This document shows positions 5,904 to 63,986 of a stretch of DNA of 64,000 nt, piece after piece; within the stretch, counting starts at the first letter, position 1; each line of letters starts with the position of its first letter. Made by a program: the position numbers and the translations under genes. The stretch is taken from contig DJVQ01000025.1 of NCBI GenBank assembly GCA_002441265.1, forward strand, positions 1,422 to 65,421. Reading direction: 5' to 3'. This DNA is from Syntrophaceae bacterium UBA6252 (GTDB lineage Bacteria; Desulfobacterota; Syntrophia; Syntrophales; UBA6807). The notes beneath the pieces were generated by a model, which was given only the letters and a program-made list of their open reading frames with translations, made no database searches and was not told the DNA's origin.

Positions 5904-6950
5904 CTACTTTTCTTTTCGAATCTGATATTTTAAGACCGCTTCGCGGTGGTGGGATAAAGTGGTTGAAAAATGATGGGATCCATCGTTGCGGGCGACGAAG
6001 AACAGGTAGGGAACGGCGGCGGGCCGCAGGGCCGCGTCGATTGAGTCCACGCCGGGGTTGCAGATGGGGCCGGGGGGCAGCCCCTTGTGCACGTAGGTGT
6101 TGTGCGGCATGTTCTTCGAGAGGTGAGACTTCTTGAGGTTCCCGTCGAAATCGGGAATGTCGTAGATCACCGTCGGATCGCTCTGGAGCAGCATTCCCTT
6201 TTTCAGGCGATTGTGAAAGACGGCGGAAATGATGGGTTTCTCCTCGGACAGGGCCGCTTCCTTCTCGATGATCGAAGCGAGAATGACAATCTCCTCGAGG
6301 GTCATGCCGTGCCGTCTCGCAAGCGCTTCCCAGTCGGGGCGCTGGTGCTTCCGGAACTGCCGGACCATGAACCGGATGATCTCCTCCTCCCCCATGGAAC
6401 GGGTAAAAATGTACGTCTCGGGGTAAAGGTACCCTTCCACGCTATCCCCCTTGATTTTCAGGGAATCGAGAAGGCCGGGGTCCCGGGCGCGGGCGAGGAA
6501 GGTTTTATAATCCACGAGATTCCAGGCGGAAAGGCGTTCGGCCACCTGCCGGACCGTGAATCCCTCGGGAAAGGGAATCCGGTACCCCTTGATCTCTCCC
6601 CGGACGAGTTTCCGGAGGAGGTCGTCAGGGGAGTTGAGGAGGGAGATTTCGTATTCCCCCGCCCGGATGTGCTGGGGGGCCTTCCGGAGACGGGCGAGAA
6701 TAGAAAACAGGAACTCGTTCCCGATGACGCCCTTTTCCCTCAGGAGCGACATGGCGGTCCTGAAATTCGTGCCTTTGGCGATTTCCACCGTTACGGAACA
6801 TTCCCCGCAACGGGGATTGATGGGATTTCGGGCGTAATCGAGAAGGACGGACCAGGCGAGTCCGATCCCGGCCAGGCCGGCCATGGCAAGAAAAGCGATC
6901 ACGACGAGGCGGGAAGCGATGGAAGGGGAAAGGATCGACTTACCCGCCAT
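5904..6950 (-). CDS. mltG: Endolytic murein transglycosylase MltG (YceG family)
   Basis: 348 aa with an N-terminal TM helix. YceG-like core, with a C-terminal YLFFVARNDGSHHFSTTLSHH block. Confidence 0.88.
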   Translation of the reverse strand: MAGKSILSPSIASRLVVIAFLAMAGLAGIGLAWSVLLDYARNPINPRCGECSVTVEIAKGTNFRTAMSLLREKGVIGNEFLFSILARLRKAPQHIRAGEYEISLLNSPDDLLRKLVRGEIKGYRIPFPEGFTVRQVAERLSAWNLVDYKTFLARARDPGLLDSLKIKGDSVEGYLYPETYIFTRSMGEEEIIRFMVRQFRKHQRPDWEALARRHGMTLEEIVILASIIEKEAALSEEKPIISAVFHNRLKKGMLLQSDPTVIYDIPDFDGNLKKSHLSKNMPHNTYVHKGLPPGPICNPGVDSIDAALRPAAVPYLFFVARNDGSHHFSTTLSHHREAVLKYQIRKEK

Positions 6951-7368
6951 GCTTCCGGGTCTCCCGCCGGTTCAGGTAATCCTGGAGGATCAGGCACGCC
7001 GCAAGGCGGTCCACCACATTCCGCTTTTTCCCCGCCCGGACCTTCCGTCCCGCCAGGATGTCCTCCGCCTCCCGGGTCGACAGCGTTTCGTCCCACCGTT
7101 CCACGGGAACGGGAAAGGCGGACTCCAGTTTTTCAACGAACGCGTCCACCTTTTCGCACTGGATTCCCCTGCTTCCGTCCAGGCGGTAAGGGTAGCCGAC
7201 GACGATCCGGCCCACGGTGAATTCCCGGACGTACCGGCCGATTTCCGCGAGATCCCGCTCCTCGCCCCGGGACTGAACGGTGGCAACCCCCCGGGCGAGG
7301 ATCTCGAGTTCGTCGCACACGGCCACCCCGATTCTCTTCGCCCCGTAATCGATTCCAAGGATCCTCAT
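6940..7368 (-). CDS. ruvX: Holliday-junction-resolvase-like nuclease RuvX (YqgF)
   Basis: ORF 6940..7542 trimmed to internal ATG 7368 (MRILGIDYGAKRIGVAVCDE). The upstream part of the ORF runs into the repeat region. Confidence 0.88.
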   Translation of the reverse strand: MRILGIDYGAKRIGVAVCDELEILARGVATVQSRGEERDLAEIGRYVREFTVGRIVVGYPYRLDGSRGIQCEKVDAFVEKLESAFPVPVERWDETLSTREAEDILAGRKVRAGKKRNVVDRLAACLILQDYLNRRETRKHGG

Positions 7369-7645
7369 CAGGAACGCACTCAAAGGAAAATTCCCGGCGT
7401 GTCTTCTCCGGTGGGCTTCGCGGGAAGCCCCGGCAACGCCGGGTTCCCTCTCTCTTACCACAATAAGCGGCCCGGGTCCATTCCGCCCGGGTTTCGCGTT
7501 CCATCCGGGGCTGAAGCCCCGGACTACATCTGAAATTCGCATGAGCCGGAGCCCATACCGGCCGGTACTTCTCTCATGTAGTCCGGCCCTTCAGGGCCGG
7601 CGGCACGGTCGATAGATGTTCCTTCCTGAAAACGACCACCGTCAA

Positions 7646-7829
7646 GGGGCGCGAAACGGTTTTGGAGGCGAATAAGCGCCTTTTCGCAACGGTTCCTTTC
7701 GAAGCGGAACGGCCGCAACACCGCTTGTCCGAGCCGGAAAAGCCCCATAGGGCGAATCCGCGGTGTTGCAGTGGAGCGAGAAAACTGGAACCGTCGAAAA
7801 GCGGTTCCTGAGCCGGAAAACCGTCCGCG
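7646..7829 (+). repeat. Long-hairpin unit A1
   Basis: Inner stem GCAACACCGC/GCGGTGTTGC. Middle stem around AACGGTTCC/GGAACCGT. Outer stem ACGGTTTT/AAAACCGT. Confidence 0.8.
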
Positions 7830-7950
7830 ACCCCGGGGGAACAGCCACATCAATCCGCTCGCCCTCGTCCCGACCGGGGCTGAAGCCCCGGATTCCATCT
7901 GAAGAGTCTTCTCATCCATCGGGATTCTATCCCAAGGAACCGCCGTCGAA

Positions 7951-8133
7951 GGGCGCGGAACAGTTTTGGAGGCGAATCAACCGTCTTTTCGTCACGGTTC
8001 CTTTCGAAGCGGCACGCCCGCAACACCGCCTGTCAGAGTCTGATGGCCCCATAGGACAAATCCGCGGTGTTGCAGTGGAGCGAGAAAATTGGAACCGTCG
8101 AAAAGCGGTTCCTGAGCCGGAAAACCGTCCGCG
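7951..8133 (+). repeat. Long-hairpin unit A2
   Basis: Same scaffold as A1, with a different apical segment. Confidence 0.8.
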
Positions 8134-8315
8134 CCCCCCGGGAAGCAGCCACATCAATCCGCTCGCCCCCGTCCCGACCGGAACCCGCCGTTTGAAAAAC
8201 GTGCTCTATCGACCCGTTACCGGTTCGTCACGGGTTTCGTTGTGAATTGTCCCGTTTTCTGTTATCCAGGGGGAAAATGCAGGAAGGGCGATAGCCTTTC
8301 AAGGGAAAGGAACCG

Positions 8316-10244
8316 ATGAAGCACATCATCCTCGGAACGGCGGGTCACGTGGATCACGGGAAGACCTCCCTCATCCGGGCGCTCACCGGAATCGACACGG
8401 ACCGGCTGAAGGAGGAAAAGGAACGGGGAATCACCATCGAACTCGGCTTCGCGCGGATGACCCTTCCCGGCGGGCTGACCATCGGCATCGTGGACGTACC
8501 CGGCCACGAGCGGTTCGTGAAGCACATGGTCGCCGGCGCGGGGGGGATCGATCTCGTGGCCCTGGTCATCGCCGCAGACGAGGGGGTCATGCCGCAGACC
8601 CGGGAGCACCTGGACATCTGCAGCCTTCTCGGCATCCGCACCGGCCTCGTCGCCGTCACCAAGACGGACCTGGTCGACCGGGACTGGCTCGATCTCGTCA
8701 TCGAGGAAATCGGCGACTTCCTGAAAGGCACCTTTCTCGAGCCGGCGCCGATCGTCGCCGTTTCGGCAACAACGGGGGAAGGGCTTCCCGAATTCGTGTC
8801 GGCACTGGAAAAGGTCATCACACCCATGGAGGACCGCTCCGAATCGGGATTTTTCCGGCTCCCAGTAGACCGGGTGTTCACCATGAAGGGGTTCGGGACG
8901 GTCGTCACGGGAACCCTCGTGTCCGGGAAGATCCGCGTCGGGGAAACGGCGGACCTCCTCCCGCAGAAGGTCCGCGCAAAAGTCCGGGGGCTCCAGGTCC
9001 ACAACGAAGCCGTGGATACGGCCCTGGCGGGGCAGCGTACGGCGATCAACCTGCAGGGCATCGAAAAGGAGGCGGTGGAACGGGGCAACGTTCTCGCCGC
9101 CGTCGACACCTTCGAGCCGTCCTCCGTCATGGACGTCTCCTTCCGGTATCTGCCGTCGGCGGGAAGGAAACTGAAGACCCGGGCCGCGGTCCGGTTCCAT
9201 TGCGGAACCAGTGAAATCCTTGCCAGGATCGTCATCATGAACCGCCAGCAGATCGAGCCCGGCGAGGAATGCTACGGCCAGATCTTTCTGGAAGCGCCGG
9301 CTGTGGCCTCCGGCGGAGACCGTTTCGTTCTCCGGAGCATTTCCCCGGCGGCGACCATCGGCGGGGGGGTCATCCTGGACCCTCTCGCGAAGAAGTGGAG
9401 AGCCCGGGAAAAGAAACGGCAGAGCGAATGGGAAATCCTCCAGGGGGGAACGGGCCTCGAAAAGACGTCGGTGATTCTCCACAGAGCGGGCCTGGAAGGA
9501 ATCTCCAGGGAGCGGCTCGCCGTGAGAACCGGCATGTCCCAGGGAGAAATGAAGCGGATCCTCGACCAGCTTCTCTCCAGGAGGGAGGCCCTCCTGCTCG
9601 ACGGCGACCCCCCGAGGCTCTTTCACTGGGACGTTTACCGGAAGCTCCAGGAGGACATCCTCGCCGAGGCGACGGAATATCACAGGAACCAGCCTCTCCG
9701 GAAAGGCTGCTCCCGGGAGGAGCTGAGAATCCGCATCGGGGCATCCGTCGACGTCAAGCTCTTCAACCGGGCCCTCCGGGATCTCGAGGAGGGGAAAAAG
9801 ATCGTCTCCGAACAGGACACCGTCCGGATTCCCTCCCATGCCGTGGCACTTACCGGCGACCTCGAATCCCTGAGGGGGGAAATCGAGAACACTTACAGGG
9901 AGGCGGGTCTGGAACCGCCCCTGACCCGGGAAGTCCTGGAACGGAGCGGTGACCGAAAGGGCGGCGGCGCCAAGATCCTCGACCTCCTGACCAGGGAGGG
10001 AACCCTGGTCAAGGTCAGCGAGGAACTTTATTTCCACAGGGAGGCCCTGGAAGGGCTGGCGAAGACCTACACCGATTTCCTTCTCAGGGAAGGAACGGCA
10101 ACCCCGGGAACGTTTCGGGACCTGACGAACCTGTCCCGCAAATTCACCATTCCCCTCATGGAATACTTCGACAAGACCCGCCTGACCATGCGGGTGGGGG
10201 ATCACCGGGTACTGAGAGAGCGCAAGGAAGAAGGCAATGGATGA
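8316..10244 (+). CDS. selB: Selenocysteine-specific translation elongation factor SelB
   Basis: 642 aa. GTPase motifs [20 protein letters not shown] and TKTD, plus a long C-terminal winged-helix extension. A Sec-containing FDH lies in the same window. Confidence 0.93.
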
Positions 10245-12720: not shown

Positions 12721-13355
12721 CGGCGCCCCCTTTCCGGGAAATGGACCGCTCCCACCCGCTTCAGCGCGCAGACGACCTCGCACAACGGAAGGCCGATCAC
12801 GTTGGTGCAGGAACCGTGAATCTCTCCGACGAACACCGCTCCCATCCCCTGGACCGCGTATGCGCCCGCCTTGTCATAGGGTTCGGGGGTGCCCGCGTAC
12901 CATTCCAGTTCATCCTCCGGAATCTCCCGGAACATCACCACGGACTCCACGGCCTCGGAAACCGCCGGCGGCCCCTCGCCGCGGAGAAGGGAGAATCCGG
13001 TGATCACCTGATGACTCCTGCCGCTCAGTTTCCGGAGCATCTCCTTCGCCTCCCCGGCGTTCCGGGGTTTGCCGAGCACCTCCCCGTCGACCACGACCAC
13101 CGTGTCCGCCCCGAGGACCCAGGAGGCGGGATGCCGTGCGGCAGCCATGCGGCTTTTTTCGAGAGAGAGCCGGATTGCATGATTCCTCGGGGTTTCCCCG
13201 TTCAGGAAGGTTTCCGGCACATCGCTCGGCGCTACGGTGAAGCGAAGCCCGAGGCTCCCCAGAAGTTCTCTCCTTCTCGGGGACGCCGAGGCCAGGATGA
13301 ATGCGGGTAGGGACACGACAGAAATCCTTTCTTTACGGCTTCGGAAAAAGTTCAT
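12717..13355 (-). CDS. maf: Maf-like nucleoside triphosphate pyrophosphatase
   Basis: 212 aa with ILASASPRRRELL and GAYAVQG. Confidence 0.88.
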   Translation of the reverse strand: MNFFRSRKERISVVSLPAFILASASPRRRELLGSLGLRFTVAPSDVPETFLNGETPRNHAIRLSLEKSRMAAARHPASWVLGADTVVVVDGEVLGKPRNAGEAKEMLRKLSGRSHQVITGFSLLRGEGPPAVSEAVESVVMFREIPEDELEWYAGTPEPYDKAGAYAVQGMGAVFVGEIHGSCTNVIGLPLCEVVCALKRVGAVHFPERGRR

Positions 13356-13356
13356 A

Positions 13357-13436
13357 TGCTGCGTTGCCCTTCTTCTCTCCTCCCTGCGGCGTACCGAAAG
13401 TACGCCTCGGTCCTCGCGATTCGGGCGCCTTGCCTT
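13357..13436 (-). repeat. Dispersed ~80-nt GC-rich intergenic element, copy R1
   Basis: Its reverse complement aligns with 35588-35668, 54693-54768 and 63910-63986. Shared blocks are GCGCCCGAATC, the hairpin GGCGTAC-N5-GTACGCC, and CGCCGCAGGGAGGAG..GAAGGGCAACGC. Confidence 0.7.
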
Positions 13437-13508
13437 TGGAGCTTCTTCCTTTGCCGTTATTTCCCGACTTTCTTCAAATCCGTCTTTCCTGACGATCCCC
13501 TTCGGGAT

Positions 13509-14211: not shown

Positions 14212-14296
14212 AGAACCGATAAAGGCAAACTATCCGTAAGGGTAGGACGCAAAGCCATGGGTCCGCGGATGCGGATCGCCAGGCCGCCGAAGTTCT
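14212..14296 (+). promoter_or_regulatory. c-di-GMP-I (GEMM-I) riboswitch aptamer
   Basis: Reads AAAGGCAAAC-UAUCC-GUAA-GGGUA-GGACGCAAAGCC. The conserved GGCAAAC and GGACGCAAAGCC blocks flank a P2 hairpin with a GNRA loop, as in Vc2. P1 is AGAAC (14212-14216) paired with GUUCU (14292-14296). Confidence 0.7.
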
Positions 14297-28721: not shown

Positions 28722-28926
28722 AACGTCATCCTTCCGGTACGTCCCGCCCCCCGCAGAACCGCACGTCAGGCAAATTTCCTTCGTTCCAACTGTCTCATGT
28801 AGCCCGGCCCTTCAAGGCCGGCGGCCTTTGACGCACCGTTGCCCGCAACGCCGGGGCTGAAGCCCCGGACTACATTTGAAGATTCTTATCATCCATCGGG
28901 ATTTTACCGCAGACAACCGCCATAGA

Positions 28927-29109
28927 GGGGCGCGGGACGGTTTTGAGGGCGAATAATCGCTTTTTCGCTAACGGTTCCTTTCGAAGCGAAACGCCCGCAA
29001 CACCGCTTGTACCGGCACGGAGACCCAAAGGCCGAATCCGCGGTGTTGCAGTGGAGCGAGAAAATTGGAACCGTCGAAAAGCGGTTCCTGAGCCGGAAAA
29101 CCGTCCGCG
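28927..29109 (+). repeat. Long-hairpin unit B1
   Basis: Same scaffold as A1/A2. The apical segment is identical to B2. Confidence 0.85.
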
Positions 29110-29309
29110 GCCCCCGGGAACCGCCACATCAACCCAACGTCCCTCGTTCCAACCGGGGCTGAAGCCCCGGACTACGTTAAAAACCCCATCGCCCCCCGGA
29201 ACCGCCACATCAACCCGACGGCCCTCGTCCCGACCGGGGCTGAAGCCCCGGACTACGTTTGAAGGTTCTTATCATCTCCCAGAATTTTACAGCGGGAAAT
29301 CGCCGTCGA

Positions 29310-29492
29310 GGGGCGCGGGACGGTTTTGGAGGCGAATCAACCGCCTTTTCGTCACGGTTCCTTTCGAAGCGAAACGCCCGCAACACCGCTTGTACCGGCA
29401 CGGAGACCCAAAGGCCGAATCCGCGGTGTTGCAGTGGAGCGAGAAAATTGGAACCGTCGAAAAGCGGTTCCTGAGCCGGAAAACCGTCCGCG
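29310..29492 (+). repeat. Long-hairpin unit B2
   Basis: Best-paired copy. Outer stem GCGGGACGGTTTT/AAAACCGTCCGC; middle stem AACCGCCTTTTCGTCACGGTTCC/GGAACCGTCGAAAAGCGGTT; inner stem GCAACACCGC/GCGGTGTTGC. Confidence 0.85.
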
Positions 29493-29611
29493 TCCCCCGG
29501 GAACAGCCGCATCAACCCGACGGCCCTCGTCCCGACCGGGGCTGAAGCCCCGGACTACGTTTGAAGGTTCTTATCATCTCCCAGAATTTTACAGCGGGAA
29601 ATCGCCGTCGA

Positions 29612-29656
29612 GGGGCGCGCGACGGTTTTGGAGGCAAATCAACCGCCTTTTCGTCA
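29612..29656 (+). repeat. Truncated unit B3 (5' arm only)
   Basis: GGGGCGCGCGACGGTTTTGGAGGCAAATCAACCGCCTTTTCGTCA, ending on the stop codon (29654-29656) of the minus-strand small ORF. Confidence 0.8.
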
Positions 29657-29887
29657 GCCTTTTTCCAGGGCCCGTTCCATCTCCTCCGCCAGGGCCCCGT
29701 AGGTCGATTGCATCAGGGTTTCCAGGGTTTCCGTCTGTTTCCTCATGGGAAGCCACTGGAGGACGTGCTCCTGGTCCCGCCAGATCCGATCCCGGGCCTC
29801 GTCGGCCCGCTGCTGCACCTCCGCCGCCATGTCCCTGCCGAACCGCTCCTCGTATTTCCGGATGATCTCGAGATACTTTTCCTTCAT
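29654..29887 (-). CDS. Small helical hypothetical protein (77 aa, or 87 aa if it starts at 29917)
   Basis: C-terminal part of track ORF 29654..30268: MKEKYLEIIRKYEERFGRDMAAEVQQRADEARDRI... Lies directly downstream of gspE on the same strand. The purine-rich stretch GGCGGGGAG lies upstream of ATG 29887. Confidence 0.5.
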   Translation of the reverse strand: MKEKYLEIIRKYEERFGRDMAAEVQQRADEARDRIWRDQEHVLQWLPMRKQTETLETLMQSTYGALAEEMERALEKG

Positions 29888-35524: not shown

Positions 35525-35587
35525 ATCCTCAGGAACCCGGCAAAGCGTTCAATGTCCTCTCCGGACGGCCAAGTAAAAAGCATCGCA

Positions 35588-35668
35588 GGCAAGGCGCCCG
35601 AATCCCGGCGACCGGGGCGTCCTTCCCCGTGCGCCGCAGGGAGGAGAAGTCAAGGGCGACGCGGCATA
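35588..35668 (+). repeat. Dispersed ~80-nt element, copy R3
   Basis: GGCAAGGCGCCCGAATCCCGGCGACCGGGGCGTCCTTCCCCGTGCGCCGCAGGGAGGAGAAGTCAAGGGCGACGCGGCA, in the gspM-gspN gap. Confidence 0.7.
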
Positions 35669-46233: not shown

Positions 46234-49200
46234 TTACTTCACCCCCTTTCTATCGACATTCACCATGAACGCCTTGCTCTCCGGGATCATGGTGTTTGGA
46301 TCCCCGATGAACGGGGTCAGGAGGTTTGCCGAATCGCCGAACGTGAACACCTCCGGTTTCTTGTCGTCGTGGGAGTATTTCCGCATGGCCGTGGTGACCC
46401 ACCCGTAATGCCACGGGATACCCACCTGGTGGATCGTCTGGCCGTTGATGTCGAAGGGTTTGAACCGGGCCGTGACAATGGCCACCGCGTCGACTTCCCC
46501 CCTCACCGACCGGACCACGACGGAATCGCCGTTGCCGATCCCCTTCAGCTTCGCCAGTTCCTCGCTCATCTCGACGAACATGGAGGGCTGCATCTCCGCA
46601 AGCCAGGAACACCAGCGGGTCATGAGGCCCGTCTGCCAGTGCTCGCTCACCCGGTAGGTGGAGCAGACGAAGGGGAACCGGGGGTCGCATGTGGCCCGCA
46701 GATCGAGTTCCGTGCCGCCCACGTCGAAACGGCGGATCGTCGGATTGATGAACTGCGGGGAAAGAAGGTTCTTGTCGATGGGGCACTCGAGCGGCTCGTA
46801 GTGCTCCGGGAAGGGCCCGTCGGCAAGGCCGGGCCCGAAGATGGACGCCACGCCGTCCGGTTTCATGATGAAGGGCGGACGACCCGCGCCGGGCGCCGCC
46901 ACACCGTCGGGAACGTCTCCGGTCCACTTGGCGCCGTCCCAGATAATGACGGGATGTTCCGTGTCCCAGGGCAGTCCCGTCTCGGGATCGACGGAAGCGC
47001 CGTTGTAGATGATCCGCCGGTTCACGGGCCAGCTCCAGGCCCACTCGGGGTAGATGCCGATGGGAGTGGTGTCTTTCCTGCTTCTCCTGGCGGCCATGTT
47101 GCCCTTTTCCGTGTAGGAATTGCAGTAGAGCCAGTTTCCGGAGGAGGTGGAACCGTCGTCCTGGAGCAGGGCGAACGAGGGAACGAGAGACCCCTTCTTG
47201 TAGAGAACGCCGTTGATTTCCTTATCTTCCAGGAAATACCCGTTGATCTCCTTCGCGATGGCATGGGCGTCCAGGTGGGTGACCCTGCCGAAGGCGTCCT
47301 TGGGACCGTAATCCCAGGTCAGCTTCGTGACGGCCTCCTTCAGGGGGCCGCCTTCCTTCTCATACAGCTCCCGCACCTTGAGGAAGAGCTCCGAAATGAG
47401 TTCCCCGTCGGGGGTCGCCTCTCCGGGGGAGTTCACCGCCTTGTAGCGCCACTGCATCCACCGGCCGCTGTTGGTGATGCTCCCTTCCTTCTCGATCGAG
47501 GCGGAGCAGGGAAGCATGAAGACCTCCGTCTTGATCTTCGCCGGGTCCATCCCCGGGCCTTTCCAGAAGGAACCGGTCTCGCTGTCGAAGATGTTGACGT
47601 TCACCATCCAGTCGAGCTTGGCCATGGCCTGTCTTGTCTTGTTGGAACTCGCACCGCTGCAGGCCGGGTTCTGCCCCCAGGAAAAGAAACCCGTGAACTC
47701 TCCCTTGTACATGGCGTCGAAGAGGCTGAGCCAGGAATAGTTCTTTCCGTCGTCCAGCCTGGGGAGCAGATCGTAGGCTTCCTCCGGCGCGACGTTCGTG
47801 CCGTAGAAGGCGCGGAGCAGGCTCGTGATGTACTTGGAATAGTTCTTCCACCAGTTGAGGCTCTTCGGCTCGGTGGTGGCCGGCGTGCTCTTCTCGATGT
47901 AGTCCTTGAGGCTCGGGAGAGAGGCCAGCGGAGCCCGGAGATAGCCGGGCAGGATGTGGAAGAGAAGCGCGTAATCGGTGGACCCCTGAACGTTGGACTC
48001 GCCCCGAAGCGCGTTGACGCCGCCGCCGGCGACGCCCATGTTGGCCAGCAGCGTCTGGATGATGCTCATGGCCCGGATGTTCTGGACCCCCACGGTGTGC
48101 TGGGTCCAGCCCATGGCGTACAGGATGGTTCCCGCCTTTCCATTCTGCCCCGTCGCCGCATAGGTCTTGTAGACCTGGAGGAGCTTGTCCACCGGCGTTC
48201 CCGTGATCTTGGAGACCAGTTCGGGCGTGTACCGGTCGTATTGTTTCCGGAGAAGCTGGAACACGCAGTTGGGATCCTGGAGGGTCGGGTCCTTCAGGAT
48301 GACCCCGTCGGCGCCCTTCTGGAAGGACCAGGTGGACTTGTCGTACTTCGTGCCGTTGAGGCCCGAGAACACGCCGTCGTTCTCCCCGGGAAGCCTGAAC
48401 GCGGGATTCACGAGGAATGGGGCGTTGCTGTAGAATTTGACGTATTTTTCGTTATAGAGGTTGTTGTCCAGGATGTACTTGATCATTCCGCCCAGGAAGG
48501 CGATGTCCGTCCCCGATCTCAGGGGGGCGTACAGGTGGGCCCTCGACGAGGTCTGGGTGAACCGGGGATCGACGTTGACGAGCGTCGCCCCCTTCTCCAT
48601 GGCCTTCTGGATGTACTTGAAGGAAATGGGATGATTGGAAGCGGGGTTGCTTCCCATGGCCAGGATACAGTCACTGAACTGAATATCGATCCAGTGATTC
48701 GTCATCGCGCCGCGTCCGAACGACTCTGCCAGAGCCGCTACCGTGGCGCTGTGTCATATCCGGGCCTGGTGCTCGATGTAAACCAGACCGAGGGACCGGA
48801 GGAATTTCTGGTAGATGTAGCATTCCTCGTTGTCCATGGCGGCACTGCCCACGGAGGCGATGCCGTTGGTCCGGTTGACCTTCTGGCCTTTTTCGTTGAA
48901 TTCGGTGAAGCTCTTGTCCCGGCTGTCCTTGATCCGGCGGGCGATTTCGTCGAGGGCCCACTCCAGGGAAACTTCCTTCCACTCGGTGGCGTACGGTGCC
49001 CGGTAAAGCGGTTTGTCCAGGCGGCCCTTGTTCACGGACAGCTGGTAGATGGACCCCCCCTTGCTGCACAGGGACCCCTGGCTGATGGGATGGTCCGGGT
49101 CGCCTTCCGTGTTGACGACCTTTCCTCCCCGCGTGGAAACAATGATCCCGCACCCCACGGAACAATAGGGGCAGATCGTCGTGGTTTCCTTCGCGTACTG

Positions 49201-49311
49201 GATCTTCAGCGGCTGCGCATGGGCCGCGACGGGCTTCAGACTGACCCCAAGCCCCCCCGACACCAGTGCAGCGCCCGAAACTTTGAGGAAACCTCTCCTA
49301 GTCACCTCCAT
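46234..49311 (-). CDS. fdnG: Formate dehydrogenase alpha subunit, selenocysteine-containing, Tat-exported
   Basis: Track ORFs 48754..49404 and 46234..48705 are one frame joined through TGA 48756-48754: ...YIEHQARI-U-HSATVAALAESFGRGAMTNHWIDI. Tat motif TRRGFLK. FeS motif CPYCSVGC. Start at ATG 49311. Confidence 0.92.
48754..48756 (-). other. In-frame UGA read as selenocysteine
   Basis: The context ARI-U-HS matches the conserved Sec/Cys position of FdnG/FdhF-type enzymes. selB is present at 8316. Confidence 0.85.
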
Positions 49312-49517
49312 ATCGCTGCGCTCCTTTCTTTGGATTTGAGCTGTCTCCTTTCCAAACACGGGAGGCGCAGCCGTTTCCGGCGACACCCAATGTCCATTCT
49401 TCATGGAGAAAAATTCTCTTTAGAAGTAATGGATCGGAGAGGTTATACTGGTTGCCGACCTCTGTGAAAGAACAAACAACAGAAAGCCCAAAGAATGTGG
49501 GCCTTCAGAATCGCTTA

Positions 49518-63909: not shown

Positions 63910-63986
63910 CTGCGCCCGGATCCCGGAAACCGGCGCGCGCTTCCGCTGCGCCGCAGGGACGAGGGATGAAGGGCGACGCGGCAAGG
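63910..63986 (+). repeat. Dispersed ~80-nt element, copy R4
   Basis: CTGCGCCCGGATCCCGGAAACCGGCGCGCGCTTCCGCTGCGCCGCAGGGACGAGGGATGAAGGGCGACGCGGCAAGG, upstream of pheT. Confidence 0.65.

Follow-up and report, generated by a model that had tools for sequence, protein, structure and literature searches.

A dispersed, very probably selfish, non-coding repeat combining GTAG-tagged REP hairpins with a conserved long hairpin in a Syntrophales-like lineage

Introduction

Families of repetitive extragenic palindromes (REPs) lie outside genes and reach more than 100 copies per genome (Di Nocera et al., 2013, PMC3733652; Nunvar et al., 2010, PMC2817692). Within the GTAG-tagged class, sub-families are defined by alternative complementary stem residues, and the tag is kept in >90% of the members of most described families, although degenerate families exist (PMC3733652). 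Here we analyze a 64,000-nt stretch of DNA (the window) from Syntrophaceae bacterium UBA6252 (GenBank assembly GCA_002441265.1, contig DJVQ01000025.1, positions 1,422 to 65,421), in which the 947-nt gap between ruvX (6940-7368, - strand) and selB (8316-10244, + strand) holds an array of short GTAG-tagged hairpins and ~185-nt imperfect long hairpins (LHs). A first-pass annotation, made from the letters of the window, had offered a non-autonomous mobile element, a structured small RNA (sRNA) family and a protein-binding array as possible explanations. We conclude that the repeat is very probably a dispersed, selfish, non-coding element. Our best explanation, which we hold to be reasonably probable, is more specific: a non-autonomous mosaic element built on GTAG-tagged REP hairpins and mobilized in trans by a system of the type formed by REPs and REP-associated tyrosine transposases (RAYTs).

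The nearest described class is the GTAG-REP superfamily and its clusters, the bacterial interspersed mosaic elements (BIMEs), known from Escherichia coli, Pseudomonas, Stenotrophomonas (SMAG) and Geobacter uraniireducens (GTAG-11) (Di Nocera et al., 2013, PMC3733652; Nunvar et al., 2010, PMC2817692). Strictly defined, BIMEs are alternating REPs joined by short conserved linkers (PMC2817692), and REP doublets forming hairpins (REPINs) are inverted REPs separated by a short spacer and folding as one hairpin (Bertels and Rainey, 2011, PMC3116915). REP families can also be constantly tied to another palindrome: GTAG-15 dimers of Anabaena variabilis lie inside long palindromes, and CGTC-1 dimers of Halothiobacillus neapolitanus inside 41-bp palindromes (PMC3733652, section 7). 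[quoted passage not shown]

Results

Structure of the repeat

The array in the ruvX-selB gap (array A, 7505-8180) and a second array 21 kb away, downstream of rsmI (array B, 28799-29656), share one orientation and one composite unit. In order, this unit comprises a 7-bp GC hairpin tagged GTAG/CTAC, a spacer, an LH of ~184-185 nt and a tail of ~43 nt, at a regular spacing of 302-304 nt. A re-reading of both arrays upheld every coordinate in the first-pass annotation and confirmed its report that the unit recurs in array B. Units in the window stand head to tail, with neighbours sharing one hairpin. There are just two LH copies in array A, 304 nt apart and 94% identical over 136 nt; the left spacer of its first unit (A1) differs, the tails occupy 7830-7873 and 8134-8176, and CCGG (8177-8180) is the sole remnant of the hairpin that would follow. 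Array B contains two full units, an 81-nt short unit, which is probably a deletion derivative of the full unit, and a unit cut off after ~44 nt of LH. Tandem Repeats Finder detected array B (period 383) and not array A. No gene was called within either array.

By their structure, the short hairpins can be assigned to the GTAG-tagged REP class (PMC3733652), which the first-pass annotation had not recognized in them. An 18-nt hairpin, with a 7-bp GC stem (CCGGSSC/GSSCCGG) and a 4-nt loop, is joined to a 5-nt tag, within the 20-40 bp length and 6-13 bp stem by which GTAG REPs are recognized. In the window, CCGGGGCTGAAGCCCCGG followed by ACTAC occurs six times, always on the + strand (7505, 7874, where the tag has degenerated to ATTCC, 28851, 29153, 29234 and 29536), against 0.01 expected from shuffles, and the facing form, GTAG+N+CCGGCCCTTCARGGCCGG, is found at 7578 and 28799. 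REP hairpins of this family are denoted by the sequence CCGGSSCTTCAGSSCCGG. Counts of 72 to 76 such hairpins refer to loci that were chosen for containing an LH, across several assemblies. Among 76 hairpins, the inner stem is GG/CC in 43, CC/GG in 24 and non-complementary in 9, which corresponds to the alternative complementary sub-families of GTAG REPs. The loop is TTCA, with CTTCAG present in 68 of the 76, and the 5' tag is GTAG in 43 (57%), GGAA in 9, GCAG in 4 and other sequences in the rest. The hairpins at 7505 and 7578 had been described as an inverted pair. Their tags do face each other and the 7505/7576 arms are 84% complementary over 25 nt, but the two are compensatory stem variants of one family, not one sequence inverted. 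REP dimers occur with tags inward, with tags outward and head to tail, as do tandem clusters, and all hairpin copies are extragenic.

The hairpins are bound to the LH. All 72 REP hairpins counted in 289 kb of these LH-containing loci lie within ~155 nt of an LH, and none of 58 LH-free intergenic gaps contains one.

As single-stranded DNA (ssDNA), the LH at 7646-7829 folds into one long imperfect hairpin (-48.7 kcal/mol, z = -4.29), and none of 200 shuffles was as stable; folded as RNA in a 246-nt context, it gave z-scores of -1.95 (+ strand) and -0.29 (- strand). Across copies the LH spans 168-195 bp. Its arms are highly conserved. The apex, which lies between GCAACACCGC and GCGGTGTTGC, exists in five or more variants, 9 to 35 nt long, a pattern that deletions in the middle of a DNA palindrome would leave. 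This tip corresponds to columns 85-119 of the LH alignment (window 7725-7759, 8030-8063, 29007-29039 and 29390-29422), can differ between copies of one array and sometimes bears its own small GCCC/GGGC hairpin; between units A1 and A2 one small apical stem shows a compensatory change from CCG/CGG to CAG/CTG. The motif GGAACCG/CGGTTCC recurs several times within the LH and tail, and the right arm of the LH includes a perfect local hairpin (GGAACCG-TCGAAAAG-CGGTTCC). Pairwise difference is lower in the right arm than in the left (0.072 vs. 0.104).

The modules around the LH reveal the design of the whole element. On its right, the LH is followed either by the tail and a hairpin of stem variant a or by a second spacer and a hairpin of variant b; on its left stand mirror images of these right-flank modules, or the S1 spacer after the preceding hairpin. 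Because the right flank (tail and variant-a hairpin) mirrors the left flank (variant-a hairpin and spacer) of other loci, the element reads as a palindrome with its GTAG tags outward. The basic element is a palindrome of ~300 bp, in the order 5'-GTAG-REP hairpin, spacer, 185-nt LH, spacer', REP hairpin-CTAC-3'. Among the individual loci and contigs retrieved outside the window (numbered with L), inverted REP pairs with GTAG outward bracket an LH across a ~250-nt spacer at L011, L013 and L024 (type-II copies), and no REP is recognizable on one side of the LH at L018, L027 and L029. Whole elements fold as ssDNA into three separate hairpins (REP, LH, REP); z is -5.0 at L024 and -3.9 over 7574-7900 in the window. 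The two arrays of the window represent a head-to-tail derivative of this basic element. The unit is not divisible by 3 in length, and the long open reading frames (ORFs) that cross the repeat are high-GC artefacts.

Table 1. Positions of the repeat modules that make up arrays A and B in the window.
Feature	Position	Strand	Remark
REP hairpin, stem variant a (CCGGGGC/GCCCCGG, loop TGAA) + ACTAC	7505..7527	-	canonical 5'-GTAG-hairpin reads on - strand
REP hairpin, stem variant b (GTAG-T-CCGGCCC TTCA GGGCCGG)	7578..7600	+	dimer with 7505-7527, GTAG tags inward
Left spacer, unit A1	7601..7645	+	akin to the CGGCACCTTGCCGGAAACG..CACCGT spacer beside variant-b hairpins elsewhere, plus an extra insert of ~18 nt
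LH copy A1	7646..7829	+	fold, profile search
Tail module (GGGGAACAGCCACATCAATCC...CCCTCGTCCCGA)	7830..7873	+	always adjoins a variant-a hairpin
REP hairpin variant a, degenerate tag ATTCC	7874..7896	-	pattern match
S1 spacer (ATCTGAAGAGTCTTCTCATCC...CCGCCGTCGAA)	7897..7950	+	comparison of units
LH copy A2	7951..8133	+	repeat comparison, profile search
Tail module + first 4 nt (CCGG) of truncated REP hairpin	8134..8180	+	right edge of array A; ortholog retains CCGGGGCT
REP hairpin variant b (GTAGC-CCGGCCCTTCAAGGCCGG)	28799..28821	+	left edge of array B
Unit B1: REP-a (28851-28873), S1 spacer, LH (28928-29110), tail	28851..29152	+	
Short unit, 81 nt: REP-a, last ~20 nt of LH, tail	29153..29233	+	same short unit in L023 and L035
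Unit B2: REP-a (29234-29256), S1 spacer, LH (29311-29493), tail	29234..29535	+	
Truncated unit B3: REP-a, S1 spacer, first ~44 nt of LH	29536..29656	+	ends at stop codon of 77-aa ORF 29654-29887 (-); same boundary in ortholog L015

Distribution and strain variation

SelB homologs place the window among uncultured Syntrophales/Thermodesulfobacteriota; in the only four close relatives, identity is 98, 88, 81 and 77%. A metagenome scan with a 20-mer taken from the LH right arm retrieved 22 loci from 6 assemblies, in which an nhmmer profile of the four window LH copies found 25 full and ~10 partial LHs (80-95% identity). A protein search with a spurious ORF over the repeat returned three database "proteins" that led to two further assemblies. 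In all, ~30 full or partial LH copies are known from the 8 assemblies, at what amounts, after merging of orthologs, to ~15 independent intergenic loci, all within one narrow Syntrophales-like lineage of digesters, sludge and sediment; one metagenome assembly holds at least 15 full LHs at 11 loci. In an activated-sludge assembly, three contigs of similar coverage (~20x) carry four loci: the orthologs of arrays A and B, whose flanks are 95-98% identical, and two others. Upstream of selB, LH, tail and REP are all present in the species whose SelB is 88% identical; in that with 77% identity the ruvX-selB gap measures 304 nt and there is no REP or LH in 22 kb. The element is lineage-restricted. Dispersed, intergenic and variable between strains, it fits best the first of the explanations offered at the outset, that of a non-autonomous mobile element.

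Two observations stand beside these. The sister species without the repeat has GC-rich hairpins of its own in the ruvX-selB gap (L030, 9697-10000; for example GACGGCCC..GGGCCGTC). In a public protein collection, P0121, P0122 and P0123, "hypothetical proteins" of 160-245 aa, are translations of the non-coding arrays, spurious gene calls due to long open frames in GC-rich repeats.

The arrays differ even between close strains. In the ortholog of array A from a strain ~97% identical (L023), there is a single LH, which is inverted while the tail and hairpin keep the same orientation, and one short unit. The ortholog of array B (L015) lacks the 81-nt unit, and its first LH holds a nested insertion of ~165 nt. 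The same ~165-nt element is found at the same LH base at three unrelated loci (L015, L016 and L008). Most simply, an LH with an acquired insertion may later have been copied to new sites; alternatively, a second element may have inserted site-specifically.

This nested sequence is itself a second dispersed non-coding repeat, of ~124 nt, or ~165 nt with a 40-nt extension. Its ends are terminal inverted repeats, (G)ACGGCTTCGKAAAAAG...CTTTTTMCTTTGCCGT(C), and a GGCGTAC..GTACGCC hairpin lies in its interior. It stands alone in the maf-yjbQ gap of the window (13335-13457), with partial matches at 35561-35607 and 63949-63973, and in tandem in ortholog L023 (9000-9122 and 9168-9290). The copies nested at one identical LH position span 6512-6676 in L015, 1631-1791 in L016 and 3510-3671 in L008.

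Gene context was assigned with a crude GC3-based gene caller, checked against the gene calls around arrays A and B. By this measure, the flanking genes are convergent at 7 of the 15 loci, divergent at 4 and co-directional at 4 (3 antisense, 1 sense). All copies are intergenic, and the direction in which the LH points bears no regular relation to the genes. Nothing indicates that ruvX or selB is regulated by the array. The first-pass annotation had seen no transposase, cas gene, reverse transcriptase or credible ORF in or beside the arrays, and this was borne out within 10 kb of them, where the flanks hold housekeeping genes only. Short-read contigs (L003, L005, L006, L007, L033 and L034) end within or beside arrays A and B, as is expected of a multi-copy repeat. 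Such repeats fragment assemblies, so these arrays are probably under-represented in metagenome-assembled genomes (MAGs).

Other features of the window

The last LH of array B (29613-29656) stops at the stop codon of an unannotated 77-aa ORF (29654-29887, - strand) with no Pfam match, and the TGA of this ORF comes from LH sequence (CCTTTTCGTCA, then GCC). The same ORF/LH junction is seen in ortholog L015, which makes it an old boundary; the ORF may have lost its original 3' end to the repeat.

Two riboswitches were found elsewhere in the window. A c-di-GMP-I-GGC riboswitch (Rfam RF03167, 68.7 bits; 14215-14292, + strand) lies upstream of a prepilin peptidase/pilin cluster, and a Moco/tungsten-cofactor riboswitch (RF01055, 70.9 bits; 49329-49451, - strand) lies upstream of a molybdopterin oxidoreductase (46234-49311, - strand). 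The oxidoreductase was called as two ORFs of 185 and 823 aa, 48 nt apart; given selB in the window, an in-frame UGA read as selenocysteine at the junction is a possibility.

Discussion

The hairpins resemble GTAG REPs in being short GC-rich stem-loops with a terminal GTAG, complementary stem variants, an intergenic location and lineage specificity. They also form dimers in all three orientations and clusters reiterated in tandem with adjacent DNA. Unlike GTAG REPs, they were never seen alone or as plain dimers away from the 185-nt palindromic core; the modules between REPs are ~260 nt long instead of tens of nt and are themselves conserved repeats, and apparent copy number is in the tens, not the hundreds. 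The type-II copies recall REPINs, with two inverted REPs, GTAG outward, around a self-folding sequence. As in REPINs, the element is non-coding and dispersed, and the REPs of a pair differ by compensatory stem changes (PMC3116915). Its departures from the canonical REPIN are the ~250-nt spacer with a conserved LH in place of a short linker, REPs that fold separately from the core, and head-to-tail units in the window; nonetheless, it would work like a REPIN. With direct orientation in the window and long conserved linkers, it falls outside the strict BIME definition and has only a mosaic modular logic in common with BIMEs. The closest precedent is provided by A. variabilis GTAG-15 and H. neapolitanus CGTC-1, where a REP family is likewise joined to a second palindromic repeat and neither partner is found alone. 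There, REP dimers lie inside the palindrome; here, the palindrome lies between the REPs and is ~4 times longer.

We infer a mechanism for the proposed REPIN/BIME-like element, including its ssDNA hairpin intermediate and the identity of the mobilizing enzyme, from established REP/RAYT and IS200/IS605 biology (PMC3333891, PMC3116915, PMC3733652). A RAYT-type HUH/Y1 tyrosine transposase, encoded once elsewhere in the genome, would recognize the GTAG-tagged terminal hairpins on ssDNA and copy or move the whole REP-LH-REP palindrome from one intergenic site to another. Head-to-tail reiteration of units would follow, through recombination or slippage at the REP hairpins that they share or through HUH processing at one end. 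The BIME-like mosaics of the ruvX-selB gap and of the region downstream of rsmI would have arisen in this way, and palindrome instability would trim the LH apex and yield short units. The LH would be the conserved core or cargo of the element and not a gene, and any effects on neighbouring genes, through transcript hairpins, termination or protein binding, would be secondary.

Several observations weigh against this explanation. The GTAG tag is exact in just 57% of hairpins, compared with >90% in most described families, and the copy number seen is far below the >100 per genome typical of REP families. The head-to-tail units of the window represent an arrangement that is rare for GTAG REPs (PMC3733652) and is not the inverted arrangement of REPINs. 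Classical REPs are mostly single or paired, which those described here never are, and the mobile unit may instead be defined by the LH. The conservation of the right arm is not predicted by a purely selfish palindrome; this is a modest point, partly confounded by retrieval with a right-arm 20-mer. No RAYT/IS200-like gene was found by an HUH and YxxxNP motif scan or by tblastn (approximate probes, E<0.1) in 357 kb, which cover only a fraction of any one genome, and no clean empty site for insertion or excision was captured within one species. A weak match from the RAYT search, beside the REP cluster in L025, was rejected as PanC, the orthologous gene having the Pfam domain Pantoate_ligase.

Alternatively, the LH could be an independent MITE, its arms serving as long terminal inverted repeats for a conventional transposase encoded elsewhere, with the REPs as mere neighbours, either because the LH inserts beside REPs or because REPs accumulate next to it. 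In keeping with this, the LH is a discrete module, which at an orthologous site is found pointing either way with respect to tail and REP, and some copies (L018, L027 and L029) carry no recognizable REP on one side. Size and the long, stable hairpin fold resemble those of ERIC, Correia and Chunjie-type MITEs, which are also non-coding, intergenic and found as nested and tandem copies (PMC3184786), and insertion sequences (ISs) that target REPs are documented (PMC1525189). The arms are indeed inverted repeats over their whole length, but no consistent direct repeat is present at the boundaries of 25 LH copies, none of which has a flanking target-site duplication, and no IS-like gene lies beside any copy. 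Unlike these MITEs, the element is not A+T-rich, has no related IS (none with matching ends occurs among the 22 loci retrieved by the right-arm 20-mer) and terminates in GTAG hairpins. The sequence adjoining the LH consists of repeated spacer modules, and the palindrome runs on through them to the REP. That every one of the 72 REPs counted at the chosen loci is LH-associated, with none solitary, is unexpected of an independent target family. There is also no recurrent neighbouring gene family, the neighbours being unrelated housekeeping genes (RecJ, enolase, sigma factors, response regulators, PanC, T2SS). We consider a MITE unlikely.

The REP-LH-REP palindrome might instead be a distinct class of HUH-mobilized element, one that depends on its 185-nt core rather than carrying it as passive cargo, an explanation to which we give only a small chance. 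The head-to-tail units, like substrates of Y1 transposases, have a similar subterminal hairpin at either end, both in one orientation. As in miniature derivatives of the IS200/IS605 family (palindrome-associated transposable elements), conservation is highest in the 3' half, which comprises right arm, tail and hairpin. A required core would explain why REPs are never found without it, why the right arm is near-invariant and why hairpins of the same orientation stand at both ends of a unit. The core could act as a strand-specific ssDNA or RNA structure, for example a scaffold for enzyme recognition or priming, or a guide-like RNA resembling the right-end RNAs of IS200/IS605. In contrast with the omega-RNA scaffolds of that family, the LH is a simple long hairpin without an Rfam match, and its 3' hairpin is followed by a conserved spacer and not by a variable guide. 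No tnpA or tnpB was seen in 357 kb.

It is improbable that the LH is a multi-copy structured sRNA or cis-acting RNA element with the REP hairpins as processing or stabilizing ends, the second of the explanations first proposed. Features consistent with an RNA are three conserved G-U pairs on the LH strand, the near-invariant right arm, including its internal-loop sequence and perfect local hairpin, and the compensatory changes in one small apical hairpin. The LH strand also folds slightly better than its complement as RNA (by a mean of -2.1 kcal/mol, in 18 of 25 copies); the bias is equally strong with DNA parameters and so does not discriminate. Covariation is almost absent, with a term of only -0.1 kcal/mol and double changes in 3 of 50 pairs. 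No sigma-70-like promoter was found in the arrays. Terminator-like sites are not above shuffles, the only one being the right-arm local hairpin on the - strand. Left flanks vary among copies, leaving no common upstream region, and the apex is hypervariable in length. Orientation follows no rule relative to flanking genes, and the LH is inverted at the orthologous selB locus. The first-pass annotation had not recognized the LH as a named RNA family, and an Infernal-type search of Rfam 15, which includes 6S RNA, of similar size and shape, agrees: no match in the arrays reached a gathering threshold, and relaxing the limit to E = 10 yielded nothing but noise, the best sub-threshold score (18.9 bits vs. 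a threshold of 37) covering the REP hairpin alone. Searches for a tRNA or tmRNA origin, and of plasmids, phages and viral contigs, likewise returned no match. A Rhodoferax MAG match to an LH 23-mer, from a scan of genome representatives, was dismissed as chance, since it lies inside a coding region without surrounding similarity.

We regard it as very improbable that the arrays are host-serving DNA sites, such as binding sites for a nucleoid-associated protein, gyrase or a regulator, or bidirectional terminators or insulators, kept by selection and not by mobility. For REPs and BIMEs of E. coli, binding of IHF and gyrase has been reported, as have effects on termination and on the stability of mRNA (PMC3733652, PMC2817692). 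Convergent gene pairs are over-represented (7 of 15 loci vs. ~1/4 expected), and the recurrent GGAACCG/CGGTTCC motif could suit a binding site. Against this, copy number, orientation and presence vary between strains 95-98% identical and between sister species while the flanking genes are unchanged; divergent genes flank four of the loci, and a terminator would be pointless there; terminator-like sites occur at shuffle level; and no candidate binding protein is linked to the arrays. This explanation is compatible with later host use of a selfish element, and is hence not fully exclusive of the REPIN/BIME-like element that we favour.

A neutral local duplication limited to arrays A and B, for which only their shared orientation and 21-kb separation speak, is already refuted by the presence of the element at ~15 independent loci on many contigs of 8 assemblies.

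Conclusion

Our findings extend elements of the GTAG-REP/REPIN type to an uncultured Syntrophales-like lineage, in an unusual form in which no REP hairpin appears except at the tip of a 300-bp palindrome whose 185-nt core is conserved. In practical terms, the arrays break short-read assemblies of this lineage and seed spurious proteins in databases. If the cognate RAYT were found, the lineage could show what defines the mobile unit of REPs and how head-to-tail arrays arise.

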